In this document: positions 23,266-31,820 of the stretch, piece after piece
Layout: each line of letters opens with the position of its first letter
Position numbering within the stretch: the first letter of the stretch is position 1
Source: a virus
Lineage: Duplodnaviria > Heunggongvirae > Uroviricota > Caudoviricetes
IMG/VR virus record: IMGVR_UViG_2737471818_000007
Reading direction: 5' to 3' (one strand)
Length of the DNA stretch: 47,226 nt
The notes under the pieces: model-generated
The model's database searches: none
Seen by the model: the letters and a program-made list of their open reading frames with translations, nothing else
Told to the model about the DNA's origin: nothing
Made by a program: the position numbers and the translations under genes

Positions 23266-23808
23266 CCGGAAGGACCCGCACAAATGAGAGCGTTTATCAT
23301 TAACATTTACAGATAAGATGACGTACATCATTGAAACGCCATTCAGCCATATACCGGCAGCATTCGGTGTTGCACTTCATAACTCTGCGACTACGGTTAT
23401 AAAAGCATTGGCTACTTTTGCCACCGGCAAATCTTCAATGGATTTCCCCTGCCGGTTTTTTATTTTCATCGATGCATAACATTGCTTTTACATCAATAGC
23501 AGCTATTGTCAGTAGTATGTTGTATCGATGCATGGGTGGTATTGGCGGTCTTCGCCGACCGGTTCTGTGTAGCTCCCTATGACCGGTTTTTTTATTTCTA
23601 AGATTATAGAAGTCCTTCACTGTATGAAGGACTTCTATAACGCTTCTTACTTTGTAATTTTCGCACCTTCCGGTAATTCCATAGGTTAAAAAAACCTCAT
23701 AATCTCTAACAATTATCATCCACACAGGATAAAGACATCTGACCAGATTGCAGTATTAAAAGCTCTCATGCAGACTACGCACCCCATATCATATACAAGG
23801 TTATACTG

Positions 23809-24219
23809 ATGGTTCAGGTTGCCATTTTTAAAGAAATATTTGATCAAGTGCGGAAAGATTTAAACTGTGACCGATTTTACTCTGAACTAAAACGTCACAA
23901 TGTCTCACATTACATTTACTATTTAGCCACAGGTAATATTCACGTTGTATTGAAAAATGATAACACAGTGTTAATAAAAGGACTTAAGGAGGTTGTGAAT
24001 GTTAAATTTCGCAGAGACACGCGACTTATAGAAAATTACTCTCATAAGTTGAAATCAAGAGAAATCACATTTCATGAATACAGGGAAAATCTGGCTAAGG
24101 CTGGAGTTTTCCGATGGGTTACAAATGTCCATGAACACAAAAGGTATTACTATACCTTTGACAACTCATTATTGTTTACCGAAAGCATTCAGAACACGAC
24201 ACAATTTTTTCCACGCTAA
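23809..24219 (+). CDS. ybcV: DUF1398-family protein (YbcV-like)
   Basis: 136-aa ORF with ATG at 23809; occupies the DLP12 ybcV position next to bor; identity from memory only. Confidence 0.6.
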
Positions 24220-24443
24220 ACCATATCGCCCGGTTTAATCCCCCTCACTATCCGGCACTCCCACACAGGAGTTACCAGTCGGTACTGTGGACATAGTTAA
24301 TCCGGGAATACAATGAAAATACAGCACATCTGGCATACTTTAATAAACATTAAAAATATGAGATTTCAACTCATTGTTTAGGTTTTGTTTAAATTTCTAC
24401 AAATACGATTCAACAACCTTAAAAACACAACGGGAATAACACT

Positions 24444-24737
24444 ATGAAAAAAACGCTACTCACTTTCACGCTGGCCCTGCTTATCTCTGGATGTGCTCAA
24501 CAGACGTTTACTGTTGAAAACCAACCGACAACAGTAACACCGAAGGAAACCATCACTCATCATTTCTTCGTTTCTGGAATTGGTCAGAAGAAAACTGTCG
24601 ATGCAGCCAAAGTTTGTGGTGGCGCAGAAAAAGTTGTTAAGACTGAAACCCAGCAAACATTCGTAAATGGATTGCTCGGTTTTATCACTTTCGGCATTTA
24701 TACTCCGCTGGAAGCTCGGGTATATTGCTCACAATAA
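24444..24737 (+). CDS. bor: Bor lipoprotein (serum-resistance, Iss family)
   Basis: 97-aa ORF MKKTLLTFTLALLISGCAQQTFTV... with lipobox LISGC; near-identical in pattern to lambda Bor; opposite strand to the late operon as in lambda. Confidence 0.92.
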   Translation: MKKTLLTFTLALLISGCAQQTFTVENQPTTVTPKETITHHFFVSGIGQKKTVDAAKVCGGAEKVVKTETQQTFVNGLLGFITFGIYTPLEARVYCSQ

Positions 24738-24745
24738 TATCATAA

Positions 24746-24769
24746 GTTGCCCATCTCGATGGGCAACTC
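24746..24769. terminator. hairpin between convergent bor and endolysin genes
   Basis: Perfect 10-bp inverted repeat AGTTGCCCAT-ctcg-ATGGGCAACT directly after the bor stop; U-rich run on the minus-strand side. Confidence 0.5.
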
Positions 24770-25054
24770 TATCTGCACTTGATGCGCAAATAACAACTTC
24801 CAAAAGAAAAATAGCAAAAGCAGACCGTGTCACATAAAGACGTGCAGTTACTTTCTTTTCTATTCCTTTCATAACGGACGGCTTTAAAAGAAGATTTATA
24901 CGATCTGCCGAGGATTTTTCTCTGTACTCACTGATTCATATTCTCCTCTTTGTTTGGTATAAAAACCGAACTCTTTCTCCAGTCGTTTTTCTTGTTCGGT
25001 AAGTCTAATAACAAGCTAACCGCAGGTTGGATTTACTGGCCTCATTAATGCCAA

Positions 25055-27056: not shown

Positions 27057-28106
27057 TTAACCCGCCTGCTCCATTATTTCACCAACGGTCTGTTCAAAAC
27101 GTTCTTTTTCCAGTTCCACGCCAGTCGCCCTGCGTCCCAGTGACAGTGCCGCTTTTATTGTCGCCCCCGACCCCATAAAAAAATCGGCAACCAAATCACC
27201 GGGGCGACTGCTGGCCTCAATTATCTGCCGCAACATATCGGCTGGTTTTTCACAGGGATGTTTGCCCGGATAATACTGCACGGGCTTGTGCGTCCAGACA
27301 TCCGTATACGGAACGGCAACTGATACGGAAAAATAACGCCGCAGGGATTTGTACTCCTTCAGCAGGCTGGCATATTGCCGGTTCAGTTCACTGTATGTGC
27401 TGACCAGCTGGTGGTGTGGCTTTTCCAGTTCCCCGCGTTGATGTTTTTCTGCTGCAACACGCGCAAACAACGCCTGTAATTTCAGATAATCACCTTCGTT
27501 CGGCAACTGCCACTGACTGATACCAAACCAGTGCGAAGCCATGTTTTTCTTTCCGGTGGCTTCCGCTATCTGTTTTGACGTTATTCCCAGTGATTCACGC
27601 GCATCACGAAAGTAAGAAATCAGCGGGGCCATGACGTGCTGTTTTAGCTCGCTCCCCTTTGCCGCATAGCCGTCATTTTTGGGCCGGTATGGCCCCTGAT
27701 AATGTTCTGCAAACAGAATGCGTTCTGTTGCCGGGAAATACGCCCGCAGGCTTTCCTTGTTGCATCCGTTCCAGCGTCCGGACGGCTTCGCCCAGATAAT
27801 GTGGTTCAGCACATTAAAGCGCTCACGCATCATGATTTCGATATCAGATGCCAGGCGATGACCACAGAACAGGTAGAGACTTCCGGCAGGTTTCAGTACC
27901 CGCCAGAACTGCGCCAGACACTGTTCCAGCCATTTCAGGTAATCATCGTCGCCCTTCCACTGGTTATCCCAGCCCTCGGGCTTCACTTTAAAGTATGGCG
28001 GGTCTGTGACTATCAGATCGACTGAGTTTTCCGGTAAGGTCTGGATAAATTCCAGGCAATCAGCGTTGATTAACTCACAACTGGATATTTTTACAGTATT
28101 AACCAT
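27057..28106 (-). CDS. DNA methyltransferase, beta-class N6-adenine/N4-cytosine type
   Basis: 349-aa ORF with ATG at 28106; motif IV DPPY near the N-terminus (LIVTDPPYF) and motif I FxGxG near the C-terminus (DFFMGSGAT). Confidence 0.8.
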   Translation of the reverse strand: MVNTVKISSCELINADCLEFIQTLPENSVDLIVTDPPYFKVKPEGWDNQWKGDDDYLKWLEQCLAQFWRVLKPAGSLYLFCGHRLASDIEIMMRERFNVLNHIIWAKPSGRWNGCNKESLRAYFPATERILFAEHYQGPYRPKNDGYAAKGSELKQHVMAPLISYFRDARESLGITSKQIAEATGKKNMASHWFGISQWQLPNEGDYLKLQALFARVAAEKHQRGELEKPHHQLVSTYSELNRQYASLLKEYKSLRRYFSVSVAVPYTDVWTHKPVQYYPGKHPCEKPADMLRQIIEASSRPGDLVADFFMGSGATIKAALSLGRRATGVELEKERFEQTVGEIMEQAG

Positions 28107-28256: not shown

Positions 28257-28454
28257 TCACTGCGGAAGGCGTCTGTAACAACCGAACTGATAATCTGCCA
28301 GACCCGCCATAACAAGCTGAGTCAGTATTAACTGGCAGCGTTCGCGTGAAAGGTAAGTATTCTGCGCAATTTCCCCGACGGTCGCCGGTTCGGTGACGCG
28401 TAATTCATTAAAAACCACTCTGGCGGTTTCGGTCATATCCTGCTGTTTTAGCAT
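28257..28454 (-). CDS. small putative winged-helix DNA-binding protein
   Basis: Track ORF 28257..28634 trimmed to the ATG at 28454 (MLKQQDMTETARVVFNELRVTEPATVGEIAQNTYLSRERCQLILTQLV..., 65 aa); upstream of the methyltransferase on the same strand; function inferred only. Confidence 0.45.
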   Translation of the reverse strand: MLKQQDMTETARVVFNELRVTEPATVGEIAQNTYLSRERCQLILTQLVMAGLADYQFGCYRRLPQ

Positions 28455-28576
28455 GTCTTTTTCCCTTTTCCGGTTAACGTGACATACCAATAACTCTTGT
28501 CGAAAAAGCCAGCAAGCTGAAAGACTGGTATTCGTAACCACCAGCGCGTTTAACGTACTGTACCACTTTTCGGGCA

Positions 28577-28603
28577 CAAAAAACCCGCTCGGCGGCGGGT
28601 TTA
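28577..28603 (-). terminator. putative rho-independent terminator
   Basis: Minus strand AACCCGCCGCCGAGCGGGTT followed by TTTTTGTG. Confidence 0.4.
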
Positions 28604-28713
28604 GGCTGTGTGGCGAAGCGACTATCCTTAACACAATACAATAGTTTTTGCGTACGCGTTAATGATTTTGTAAAATTAATTGATGGGTTGATTTTAAAAC
28701 AAGGATATATTAT

Positions 28714-30117
28714 ATGGCTCGTAAAGATTTCACTCAGCAAATAGACATTCCAATTCAAAATATCCTCCTCGATACTGAAAATGCCAGAATCCGCGCAGGT
28801 AGAGATCAAAACAACTGCATTTCAAGGATATTGCGTAAAGAAAACCAGATGCTTGTATTGATGGAGGATATTGCAGAAAACGGACTTACAACCATGCCCA
28901 TATTGGTTATGCCTCACTCAGAAGGTAAATGGGTAGTTAAAGATGGTAATAGACGAATAACAGCTTTAAAACTATTAAATAACCCAGATAGTTGCCCGGA
29001 ACCACATTTAATTCCGAAAATAAAAAAAATAAAAGAAAAATATCATGACAACATACCTACTACTGTTGACTGTTTATCAAGTGACAATTTTGAAGCAGTA
29101 TTTAAAGAGATAATAGCAAGGCATTCTGGAGCACGTAATGGTGCTGGTCAATATGACTGGTTTGCATATATGCGAACAATTTATCTATTAAATAATGGAC
29201 ATCCAACTGATTATAAAAGAGCTGGTCAATATATGTGTTGGGCTGAACAAGAAGGCATTGATGTAGATGATGATTTCCCAATCACTAGTGTAGCCAGATT
29301 CTTTACTAGAGATAATCTTCTATTGTTAGGATTTGAAGTGGAAAATGATAAATTGAAGCCAATACTCTCAAAAGAAAAAATAATAAAAATGGCCTCAAAA
29401 ATTAATAGCGACTTTTCTTCAAAAATAGTTGATGTTAACACCGTCTTTAATCCTAGCGATGCAAAGAAATATCTTTGCTCGGTAAGAAAATATGCAGGAA
29501 TAATAGATGATTTTGCTTACAATAGTGATGACACAGAACAAGAAAATAATAAAAAAGAAGAAACAAATAAATGTTCCTCTCCATCTGAAGTGGATAACAA
29601 TAATGCGCAATCAGATAGTAAGAGTGACGCACCTGTACTACTAAAAAAACACGCAGGTAGAGGAGGTACACCTAAAAAAATACCAGCAGAGCGAAATAAA
29701 ATTTTTGGTAGAGGAAAGCCTGGAATTACTATTCCTGAAAATGAGACTAAAATAAGAACTATAATCTCAGAACTTAGGCAATTAGATGTAAAAAAAACAA
29801 CTCTTGCAACTGCATTTCTTCTTCGGGCACTGCTGGAGTTAAGTGATAAAGAATATAGAACAATTAACAAGTTGCAAGATAAAAAAAGCTTAGCTAAAAA
29901 TATTGCTAATAGCGCAGATCATATGTTGAAAAATAATCTAATCACTGACTCAGAACACCATATAATATCAGCTTATACTCGCGGCGAGCAAGGAACTGTG
30001 CACATTGAAACTTTACAAAAATTAATTCACAGAGAGACACATCACCCAGATTATATCTCAATTAATGTTTTTTGGGACAATATAGGTTGTTTTGTTCGAG
30101 CTTGTTGGAAAGATTAA
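28714..30117 (+). CDS. ParB/Srx-fold (DGxRR motif) N-terminal domain protein, unknown function; candidate nuclease or defence protein
   Basis: 467-aa ORF with ATG at 28714; N-terminus has ParB-like motifs (ILLDTENARIR; GLTTMPILVMP; VVKDGNRRITALKLL); Lys-rich low-complexity linker; His-rich C-terminal domain; very AT-rich. Confidence 0.65.
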   Translation: MARKDFTQQIDIPIQNILLDTENARIRAGRDQNNCISRILRKENQMLVLMEDIAENGLTTMPILVMPHSEGKWVVKDGNRRITALKLLNNPDSCPEPHLIPKIKKIKEKYHDNIPTTVDCLSSDNFEAVFKEIIARHSGARNGAGQYDWFAYMRTIYLLNNGHPTDYKRAGQYMCWAEQEGIDVDDDFPITSVARFFTRDNLLLLGFEVENDKLKPILSKEKIIKMASKINSDFSSKIVDVNTVFNPSDAKKYLCSVRKYAGIIDDFAYNSDDTEQENNKKEETNKCSSPSEVDNNNAQSDSKSDAPVLLKKHAGRGGTPKKIPAERNKIFGRGKPGITIPENETKIRTIISELRQLDVKKTTLATAFLLRALLELSDKEYRTINKLQDKKSLAKNIANSADHMLKNNLITDSEHHIISAYTRGEQGTVHIETLQKLIHRETHHPDYISINVFWDNIGCFVRACWKD

Positions 30118-30163
30118 AATAATATACCACGCTGGACTAATTTATTAGTCCAGCGTACAGTTT

Positions 30164-31018
30164 TCATTTCTTCTTCATAGAGGGAGTGCTATGAATATTT
30201 AAATTTTTATATACCATAAGTTCTGTAACTCTTGGCCTTGTCAAATGAGTTGAGTAATGTAAAGAAAACTCCACAATTTTTTCGTCTTTATATAACTTCC
30301 TGATTTCTTCACAATTATCATATGTAACAATTATCGGAGTGGAAATATCCTTAACCTTTTCAGAAATTAATTTATGATCATGAGGTTTATAATGATTTCT
30401 ATAAAGCTGGCTACCTTTTTCATAATATGGAGGATCAAGATAAATTAGAGATTTTTTTGGTAGTGTATTTTTTATACTACCAATCAACTCACAGGCATCC
30501 AAATTATAAAGATCAATAAATTTTTTCATTCCACCTATTTTTTTTACTCTTTCACATAGTTTCTTCTTATTATACCTAGCATCAATCTTATATTTACCAC
30601 TCTGTTCTTTTCCTCCTATAACCCCACCTGATAAGATTCCAGAACGATTGGTTCGATTGAGAAAAAACGTAGCAAAACCAATAGATAAAATATCATGTTT
30701 AGTATAATTGTTTATTACATCTTTTTGCTTATACCAATTATCCATTGTTACTTCTGTTTCATTTATCAATGAAATAAATTTATCATTCTCATTTAACACT
30801 GACCACCAAAATGAGTAAACAACAGGATCCAAATCATTAATAATGACATGATCTACATATCCATGCATTAGCAAATACAATGCAGCTCCTGCGCCGCCAG
30901 CATATGGCTCCACATAATACCCACCACTAATTCCGTTATACCTCAGCAGTTCTGATATCCAAGGCCCCATCCTCCCTTTTCCACCGGGATAACGTAATGG
31001 GGTAAAAAATGTAGTCAT
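30164..31018 (-). CDS. DNA adenine methyltransferase, D12 (Dam-like) class
   Basis: Track ORF 30164..31054 trimmed to the ATG at 31018 (MTTFFTPLRYPGGKGRM..); motifs YPGGK, VEPYAGGAG, FLNRTNRSG, YLDPPYY parallel E. coli Dam; AT-rich; convergent with the ParB-like gene. Confidence 0.8.
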   Translation of the reverse strand: MTTFFTPLRYPGGKGRMGPWISELLRYNGISGGYYVEPYAGGAGAALYLLMHGYVDHVIINDLDPVVYSFWWSVLNENDKFISLINETEVTMDNWYKQKDVINNYTKHDILSIGFATFFLNRTNRSGILSGGVIGGKEQSGKYKIDARYNKKKLCERVKKIGGMKKFIDLYNLDACELIGSIKNTLPKKSLIYLDPPYYEKGSQLYRNHYKPHDHKLISEKVKDISTPIIVTYDNCEEIRKLYKDEKIVEFSLHYSTHLTRPRVTELMVYKNLNIHSTPSMKKK

Positions 31019-31105
31019 GCTGAACCTCATACAAAACCAGGAAATTAAATGCATTTTACCCTAAATCACATCAATTCTAAATAACTAAATTAACAGTATT
31101 AAAAT

Positions 31106-31459
31106 TCAGTTATCTGAAAGTATAAATAGCATCCCATCAACGAACCCCAATGCTGTTTGTAGTTCTTTTCTGATTGTGCCATCTGAACACTTCCGCTTTT
31201 TTGCAATTGTACGGAGAGAAATCCCGATAACAAAGTGAGCAATGATCAGCTCATATTCTTCTGGTTTATATTTCCGCAACCGGGCCACACATCCATCAAT
31301 CATAATTCCTTCATCATCATCGCACTGGAGACGTGACATTTTACCGTGTGGTAGAAGCCCCTTGAAGCCTGCCGCTATCGACTGCCAATCAACACCACTA
31401 TTTTCTGCTGCAGCCCATGCCCCCCAGCGGTCTAAAACCTCATACATATCACGCCCCAT
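31106..31459 (-). CDS. Q: late-gene antiterminator Q (QuuD / phage 82 Q family)
   Basis: Track ORF trimmed to the ATG at 31459 preceded by AGGTG; ..LDRWGAWAA..SIAAGFKGL..CDDDEGIMIDGCVARL.. resembles DLP12 QuuD (recalled). Confidence 0.75.
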   Translation of the reverse strand: MGRDMYEVLDRWGAWAAAENSGVDWQSIAAGFKGLLPHGKMSRLQCDDDEGIMIDGCVARLRKYKPEEYELIIAHFVIGISLRTIAKKRKCSDGTIRKELQTALGFVDGMLFILSDN

Positions 31460-31820
31460 TACTAACACCTCTAATTTCGCAAATCTTCACGCCCAGCCGA
31501 CCACCAGGAACGGGCTGACCGCGCACAATATTAATTTCATCAAACTGCTCGTCGTCGATAAGCAGTCCCGCATGCGTCAGCGCATCCAGCGGTGCTTTCA
31601 GGATATTGTCCAGATCACGACGGCGCTTATCCGGTGGCTCTGCAATAATCTTTATCGCCAGCCTTCCGGACAGGTTTAATTTCAGCCGCTGCTGGCAAAC
31701 AATAAGCGCCACATCCCGGCGATAACGCTCACCGGCTTTTGATACAAAATATGTGCTGCCACGACGTCGCCAGTAGGTGTTCACCGTTGGCGGGTAAGGC
31801 AAAACAAACTCTATACGCAT
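31449..31820 (-). CDS. rusA: RusA Holliday-junction resolvase
   Basis: 123-aa ORF; PPTVNTYWRRRG..RRRDLDNILKAPLDALT.. matches RusA-family motifs. Confidence 0.85.
   Translation of the reverse strand: MRIEFVLPYPPTVNTYWRRRGSTYFVSKAGERYRRDVALIVCQQRLKLNLSGRLAIKIIAEPPDKRRRDLDNILKAPLDALTHAGLLIDDEQFDEINIVRGQPVPGGRLGVKICEIRGVSNGA

Follow-up and report, generated by a model that had tools for sequence, protein, structure and literature searches.

PD-λ-5 is one of 21 anti-phage systems obtained by functional selection (Vassallo et al., 2022, PMC9519451). Its prototype, from E. coli ECOR7, consists of two genes tabulated as 'ParB/HEPN, methyltransferase'. It was found by selection for phage resistance and, when carried on a low-copy plasmid, is broadly protective: of ten phages, all but one are affected, the effect being strongest on the T-even phages and extending to λvir and T7 (PMC9519451). 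The prototype was cloned in MG1655 without mrr, a Δmrr host being needed, and its authors read the system as a compacted restriction-modification (R-M) plus abortive infection (Abi) system, in their term 'RM+Abi' (PMC9519451). Both the phage resistance and the incompatibility with Mrr have been reported for the ECOR7 prototype only (PMC9519451). The first protein of the prototype, A, has at least 498 amino acids (aa), as indicated by an HHpred hit at residues 469-498 in Table S3 of the same work (PMC9519451). Here, we analysed a stretch of 47,226 nucleotides from a virus of the Caudoviricetes (IMG/VR record IMGVR_UViG_2737471818_000007), referred to below as the window, in which a lambdoid prophage carries two convergent genes, A and B, that we compared with this system.

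Based on PADLOC profile searches, A matched PDLC03998 (PD-Lambda-5_A) with an E-value of 3.5e-74, its residues 9-466 aligning to profile positions 4-465 of 466, while B gave a full-length match to PDLC04018 (PD-Lambda-5_B) with an E-value of 3.5e-115. PADLOC models matching A numbered 26, and all 25 of those listed were PD-Lambda-5_A; the 508-position model PDLC03994 matched with an E-value of 1e-35, the best sub-model being the 466-position PDLC03998. A match of A to phrog_9592 was also found (E-value 1e-38). Because the PADLOC profiles match A and B end to end, which we take as the decisive evidence, we consider it nearly certain that the pair is an anti-phage defence system of the PD-λ-5 family carried as a moron by the prophage. 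An initial annotation of this DNA, made from the sequence alone, had proposed that a ParB-like protein acts in defence together with a methyltransferase partner, and this is borne out by the validated family (PMC9519451). The same annotation did not recognise the pairing as a described system; in fact, it was described in 2022 and is held in PADLOC-DB. The find is thus real but not new, and it carries little weight as a discovery, since the usual tools for annotating defence genes would assign it to PD-Lambda-5.

As in ECOR7, the locus is prophage-borne and consists of adjacent genes for a ParB/HEPN protein and a D12 adenine methyltransferase, the difference being that A is 467 aa long here. 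The genes and the signals around them are the following.

28714-30117, plus strand: gene A, an open reading frame (ORF) of 467 aa encoding a PD-λ-5_A-family protein
30164-31018 (284 aa) or 30164-31054 (296 aa, first ATG), minus strand: gene B, encoding a D12-class N6-adenine DNA methyltransferase, PD-λ-5_B
30128-30157, no strand assigned: palindrome with a 13-bp stem in the 46-bp A/B spacer, detected as a 28-bp reverse-complement self-match
28648-28676, plus strand: weak candidate promoter of A, TTGCGT-17-TAAAAT, read from the sequence (8 of 12 consensus matches, under the scan threshold)
28701-28705, plus strand: Shine-Dalgarno sequence AAGGA of A, read from the sequence
31053-31102, minus strand: two overlapping σ70-like hexamer pairs from the promoter scan (9 of 12 matches each), a weak candidate promoter of B

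The ORFs of A and B are unlikely to have arisen by chance, since B matches Pfam D12, the exact A sequence recurs on public contigs and there are thousands of full-length relatives of A. For B, the start is more probably M13 (31018, 284 aa), because GAGG lies 6 nucleotides upstream of it, the O121 copy is annotated in NCBI with this length and the aligned part of the PADLOC match starts with residue 13. The stop codons of the two genes are 46 bp apart, and the spacer palindrome (13 pairs in the terminator scan; folding energy about -19 to -20 kcal/mol on either strand) is a probable bidirectional terminator. The convergent pair had been annotated as markedly AT-rich, and the composition agrees: at 0.328, the GC fraction of 28640-31100 lies below the 0.497 of the whole window and is the lowest among all 2461-bp windows (for non-overlapping ones, mean 0.509, standard deviation 0.046 and minimum 0.413).

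Linkage and distribution of the pair

Our linkage scan considered one genome per species and comprised 24 loci encoding a relative of A. A homologue of B (about 41-77% identity) lies immediately beside the A relative in 21 of them, and the co-occurrence of the two genes across genomes, which the initial annotation had offered as a check, is thereby confirmed. The two genes remain linked even where A is only 23-30% identical, and in prophage, integrative and conjugative element (ICE) and chromosomal contexts alike. Across the loci, B is better conserved than A (43-77% versus 23-76% identity), which corresponds to the usual methyltransferase/effector pattern of R-M systems. The two genes are usually convergent and are co-directional in seven loci. 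The exceptions to the linkage are three, one of which is a 1.6-kb contig. In another, from a Micavibrio metagenome-assembled genome (L031, 1841-7315), a 23%-identical A relative is located between the genes of a type I restriction R subunit (HsdR) and of an endonuclease with an Mrr catalytic domain.

In a contig look-up, the same pair was present in all three contexts retrieved, i.e., a Klebsiella conjugative element, a P22-like Delftia prophage and a chromosomal site flanked by insertion sequences. Because the same two genes occur side by side in prophages, an ICE and chromosomal islands, its acquisition as a horizontally transferred unit, already suspected at the outset, is supported. The 3′ ends of A and B overlap by 64 bp in the Delftia prophage (L007, 7365-7428) and in the chromosomal locus (L009, 7368-7431), an arrangement that suggests antisense coupling of their expression.

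A search of 1.84 billion representative proteins identified 4456 relatives of A at an E-value of at most 1e-3, of which 738 were at or below 1e-30, and the exact A protein sequence is found on 67 public contigs. The variant of the pair described here is rare in complete E. coli genomes (9 of 5426, 99.1% identity), the carriers being listed as O121, O121:H19 or without serotype. With the pair as query, Megablast gave no match in 50,697 phage records, and tblastn of A against phages and plasmids recovered distant relatives only (22-34% identity).

Domain architecture and conserved residues

An alignment of 89 full-length homologues (42-81% identity to A) was used to obtain an AlphaFold2 model of A, with a mean predicted local distance difference test score (pLDDT) of 86. 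Three regions were delimited in the protein.

28714-29508, plus strand: A residues 1-265, predicted ParB/Srx-fold domain binding nucleoside triphosphates (NTPs) plus a helical region; N23, R25, D77-G-N-R-R81, H137, G139, G143, G145 and W149 invariant or nearly so
29515-29652, plus strand: A residues 268-313, disordered low-complexity linker; pLDDT below 50, no secondary structure, no alignment consensus
29671-30114, plus strand: A residues ~320-467, all-helical domain of predicted HEPN fold; R371, E375, S377 and H439 conserved, no canonical Rx4-6H

In the model, the N-terminal domain has the fold of the ParB N-domain, including the arginine motif GxRR (Box II), which places it in the ParB/Srx superfamily, and its DGNRR motif can be aligned with the triphosphate-binding GxRR of PadC. 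The motifs quoted in the initial annotation are all present in A (NARIR, GLTTMPILVMP and KDGNRRITALKLL), and the Lys-rich linker that it described coincides with residues 268-313. The C-terminal domain, which it could not assign, had no match at all in the Pfam, NCBIfam and PDB sequence searches; its fold was assigned by structure comparison only, and in the model it is the four-helix up-down bundle of the HEPN superfamily.

The residues kept in all or nearly all relatives of A, down to 23% identity, are N23, R25, D77-G-N-R-R81, H137, G139, G143, G145, W149, R327, K346, R371, H439 and W454, and E375 and S377 are conserved in nearly all. The canonical HEPN motif Rx4-6H was sought in A and is absent, as there is no arginine 4-6 residues before H439 and no histidine 4-6 residues after R371. 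R440 and H443 vary among distant relatives, and the conserved arginine and histidine of the HEPN-fold domain sit on different helices of the model. In the N-terminal domain, E132/R136 was considered as the ParB Box III (ExxxR) and dropped, since both residues vary in distant relatives.

A glycine-rich loop of the same domain, H137-x-G139-x3-G143-x-G145-x3-W149 (window positions 29122-29160), is strictly conserved and has the lowest model confidence within it (pLDDT ~64). It matches no recognised ParB motif and may serve in phosphate binding or as a flexible loop in catalysis. For work on the mechanism of PD-λ-5, the resulting residue map (DGNRR, the H137/G139/G143/G145/W149 loop, R327, K346, R371 and H439) provides direct targets for mutagenesis.

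B matched Pfam D12 (PF02086) with an E-value of 1.6e-18, and its translation contains EPYAGGAG in addition to the RYPGGK and DPPYY motifs quoted at first. The description 'Dam-like' stands as far as the D12 class is concerned; orthology to Dam (GATC) was rejected, the TIGR00571 score being 53.9 bits against a cut-off of 114.85. The need for a Δmrr host in the case of the ECOR7 prototype argues for a non-GATC specificity of N6-methyladenine (m6A) formation, and the Mrr incompatibility of the prototype implies active, non-Dam m6A methylation.

D12 methyltransferases similar to B are encoded in 126 other complete E. coli genomes. In both loci of this kind that were examined, JJ1886 (L035, 4552-7264) and the P2 hotspot of E110019 (L036, 3094-5654), the partner of the B-like gene is an ABC/OLD-like AAA ATPase of 565-577 aa and not a ParB/HEPN protein, and in a Klebsiella ICE (L005, 4321-8246) an AAA_15/21 ATPase, A and B are found together. 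B-type methyltransferases thus appear to be a module common to different effectors. A protein search with B returned thousands of homologues, none identifiable as the ECOR7 entry, and at the DNA level, complete E. coli genomes searched with B yielded only B-like genes paired with AAA ATPases, with no ECOR7 prototype.

Possible mechanism and competing explanations

Taking the family membership, the domain folds, the conserved residues and the gene linkage as established, we infer the rest of the mechanism as follows. B, a D12-class N6-adenine methyltransferase of non-Dam specificity, would mark the host and prophage DNA. A would be the effector, in which the ParB/Srx-type NTP-binding domain and the helical region could act as a nucleotide-gated DNA sensor, a role suggested by analogy to the DUF262 domains found in SspE and GmrSD/BrxU. 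On DNA without the mark of B, the sensor would license the C-terminal HEPN-fold domain, a putative non-canonical nuclease that would most likely cut RNA, and the infection would be halted. A and B would be transcribed convergently, each from its own promoter, into the shared bidirectional terminator, and since the pair lies upstream of the putative late promoter region (see below), it would be expressible in the lysogen independently of the antiterminator Q.

On this explanation as a whole, our judgement is evenly divided. Its core, a restriction-modification-like scheme in which B marks self DNA and A would sense unmarked DNA and fire a nuclease, draws on analogy and has a precedent in the predicted association of HEPN and ParB-like domains with R-M systems (PMC3710099), and we hold it tentatively as the likeliest mechanism, with slightly less than even confidence. 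A more specific version, in which an NTP (possibly cytidine triphosphate)-gated clamp or sensor of the ParB type would read the m6A mark of B and allosterically license a HEPN-fold nuclease whose non-canonical site is formed by R371 and H439 from different helices, is doubtful; if true, the repurposing of a ParB-type switch for self/non-self discrimination would represent a mechanistically new class of modification-guided immunity.

The systems on which the analogy is based, SspE (of SspABCD-SspE) and GmrSD/BrxU, have a ParB-like DUF262 NTPase fused to a C-terminal nuclease. The present system differs from them in that the effector has a HEPN fold and not DUF1524/HNH, the motif is DGNRR and not DGQQR, and the partner modification is m6A and not phosphorothioate. 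With convergent type II R-M systems, the locus shares a methyltransferase/effector pair in which the methyltransferase is better conserved, a high AT content and horizontal mobility; unlike them, it has no C-protein gene, and A has no endonuclease fold of the PD-(D/E)xK, HNH, GIY-YIG or PLD type.

Several observations weigh against the proposed mechanism or its extension from the prototype to this locus. The T-even phages, against which the prototype is strongest, have heavily modified DNA and would be an unusual target for a discrimination based on the absence of methylation. With at least 498 aa in the prototype and 467 aa here, the two A proteins belong to different subfamilies. PD-λ-5 is named in 18 papers, and those consulted among them are genomic surveys that give no mechanism. 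In Pfam, NCBIfam and PDB sequence searches, A had nothing above threshold, and its sub-threshold matches were to ParB, GmrSD and SbnI. The predicted template modelling score of its AlphaFold2 model is 0.56, and the relative placement of the two domains is not fixed by it. The RNase activity of A is plausible and not assured, because Rx4-6H is absent. Finally, the promoter assignments for A and B are weak, σ70-like sites being no commoner in the region than in shuffled sequence.

The main rival to this sensor-effector model is a classical R-M system with an Abi back-up of the PrrC type (Anantharaman et al., 2013, PMC3710099), in which the ParB-like domain would be a DNase that cuts or nicks unmethylated DNA and the HEPN domain a latent RNase that is freed only when restriction is blocked. 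Members of the ParB/Srx superfamily have been described as nucleases and NTPases in conflict systems, and both domains of A have invariant polar residues. HEPN-ParB fusions and operons with genes for HEPN, a ParB nuclease and a DNA methylase have been interpreted in this way, as predicted multi-pronged R-M partners, the catalogued examples including the ParB-HEPN fusion Saro_3948 and the MAE_28990 family with a ParB nuclease and a methylase (PMC3710099). The term 'RM+Abi' chosen by the PD-λ-5 authors points in the same direction (PMC9519451). PrrC-EcoprrI and the R-M-linked HEPN proteins resemble the present system in that a HEPN-fold domain has a functional link to a modification enzyme and to a ParB-like domain, but the HEPN families concerned are listed as having the Rx4-6H that A lacks (PMC3710099). 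We regard this rival as a real possibility, if an unlikely one.

An improbable alternative is that the pair is primarily a selfish toxin/antidote module that stabilises the prophage or ICE by post-segregational killing, as R-M systems do, with defence as a side effect. The tight linkage of A to a methyltransferase on many mobile elements would suit such a module, as would the pairing of the same B-type methyltransferase with other effectors elsewhere, and the convergent layout, at times with the 64-bp 3′ overlaps, suggests tight control of dosage. Against it, the prototype came from a phage-resistance selection and protects broadly from a low-copy plasmid (PMC9519451). The roles in addiction and defence are not mutually exclusive.

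Still less probable is a type IV-like activity, in which A would attack modified phage DNA as GmrSD does and the role of B would be separate. A GmrSD/DUF262-like enzyme had been among the initial suggestions for A, and the searches contradict it: GmrSD_N scored 12.4 bits against a cut-off of 33.2, all GmrSD_N matches were under threshold, no DUF1524/HNH domain was matched, and the C-terminal domain has instead the predicted HEPN fold. Moreover, the prototype also stops λvir and T7, whose DNA is unmodified, and a strict linkage to a methyltransferase is not a feature of type IV systems.

Barely credible is the view that the two genes have unrelated functions, with B a late anti-restriction or orphan methyltransferase for phage DNA and A a partition or regulatory protein of the ParB/KorB type, which the initial annotation had named as the refuting alternative and which its N-terminal domain resembles. 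The second phage methyltransferase nearby (N6_N4, 27057-28106) does show that lambdoid phages carry orphan methylases. The view is largely refuted by the linkage (A beside B in 21 of 24 loci, the bacteria being diverse) and by the profile matches to a validated defence family, and the NCBIfam partition models match far under their cut-offs (17.8 versus 201.5 bits; TIGR00180, 16.2 versus 58.45 bits), while neither a ParA gene nor the C-terminal dimerisation domain of ParB was found in the window neighbourhood and the homologous loci examined.

The Q-proximal cargo slot

The pair is flanked by two features of the prophage, the second of which recurs in other elements.

31106-31468, minus strand: Q, a Q21-family antiterminator gene (PF06530, E-value 1e-44), context and not part of the defence system
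28578-28677, minus strand: conserved late-region element of ~100 bp at the edge of the cargo slot, with a hairpin and T-run at 28578-28602
L003 2481-2578, L004 2482-2562, L037 2501-2594, L038 1501-1600 and L039 4700-4777: further copies of the element

The gene order of the prophage on the minus strand is DUF968 protein, RusA, Q, B, A, the conserved element, a 65-aa ORF, an N6_N4 methylase, two holins, a GH108 endolysin, Bor and DUF1398 (both on the plus strand) and Nu1. The Q of the window is 89% identical to that of Stx2a_1447 and 48% identical to QuuD. A block of ~3 kb that includes Q and the pair (28460-31454) is common to O121:H19 prophages (L001, 8860-11855) at 98.7% identity, with different flanks, and in a related prophage without the pair, a different Q gene replaces window positions 28600-31491. 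From these alignments, the pair is inherited in E. coli together with the upstream Q as one block. The rare variant, which travels with its Q gene, could thus influence which phages superinfect the Shiga-toxin-producing O121/O121:H19 lineages.

The hairpin of the element has a folding energy of about -18 kcal/mol. Copies of the element with 80-90% identity are present in 888 records of E. coli and 80 of phages, where they adjoin Q or opposite-strand cargo. The intergenic sequence close to Q shows no conservation among these phages. It directly follows opposite-strand cargo behind a Q21-family Q in the prophages of an O103:H2 strain and of CREC8, in Stx2a_1447 and in DLP12 of K-12. The order in Stx2a_1447 is Q, two cargo genes, the element, a 65-aa ORF, a DNA methylase, ileZ-argN-argO and stx2A, and that in DLP12 is quuD, nmpC, the element and essD. 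Within the stretch of Shigella phage SfII that was read, which does not reach the Q end, the order is cargo SfII_49/50, the element and holin S. Judging by position and conservation only, the element is probably the late promoter (pR′), qut and terminator (tR′) region; a pR′ consensus scan of the minus strand from 28600 to 28720 found no convincing -35/-10 pair.

The pair would therefore sit between Q and the putative late promoter region, in the slot of the nmpC type and not in that of stx. Its placement in the same cargo slot as stx in the initial annotation was imprecise, given that the stx genes of Stx2a_1447 are located further downstream, after the 65-aa ORF, the methylase and three tRNA genes. 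In DLP12, the nmpC/lc moron slot has the same position, from a Q21-family Q to the element upstream of the late and lysis genes, and likewise holds opposite-strand cargo; the differences are that the cargo here is a defence pair and that B is co-oriented with Q.

The slot is variable and holds opposite-strand cargo in many lambdoid prophages. Other cargo in it has no match to known defence systems. It consists of a 'nucleoid-associated protein' and a hypothetical protein in the O103:H2 prophage and of a TIGR04255 protein and two hypotheticals in CREC8; together with that of Stx2a_1447, none of the seven proteins matched a PADLOC model. These seven are candidate uncharacterised morons or defences, and the Q-proximal slot may hold further uncharacterised defence cargo.

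The 65-aa ORF (28257-28454, minus strand) and the N6_N4 methyltransferase gene (27057-28106, minus strand) follow the element exactly as in Stx2a_1447. Unlike in Stx2a_1447, the methylase is followed in the window by holin genes and not by stx, and no tRNA genes are present in the whole window. A second low-GC stretch, 23501-25000 (0.37-0.39), contains the plus-strand morons Bor (24444-24737) and DUF1398 (23809-24219); it lies between the lysis genes and Nu1, an arrangement that is ordinary for lambdoid phages.

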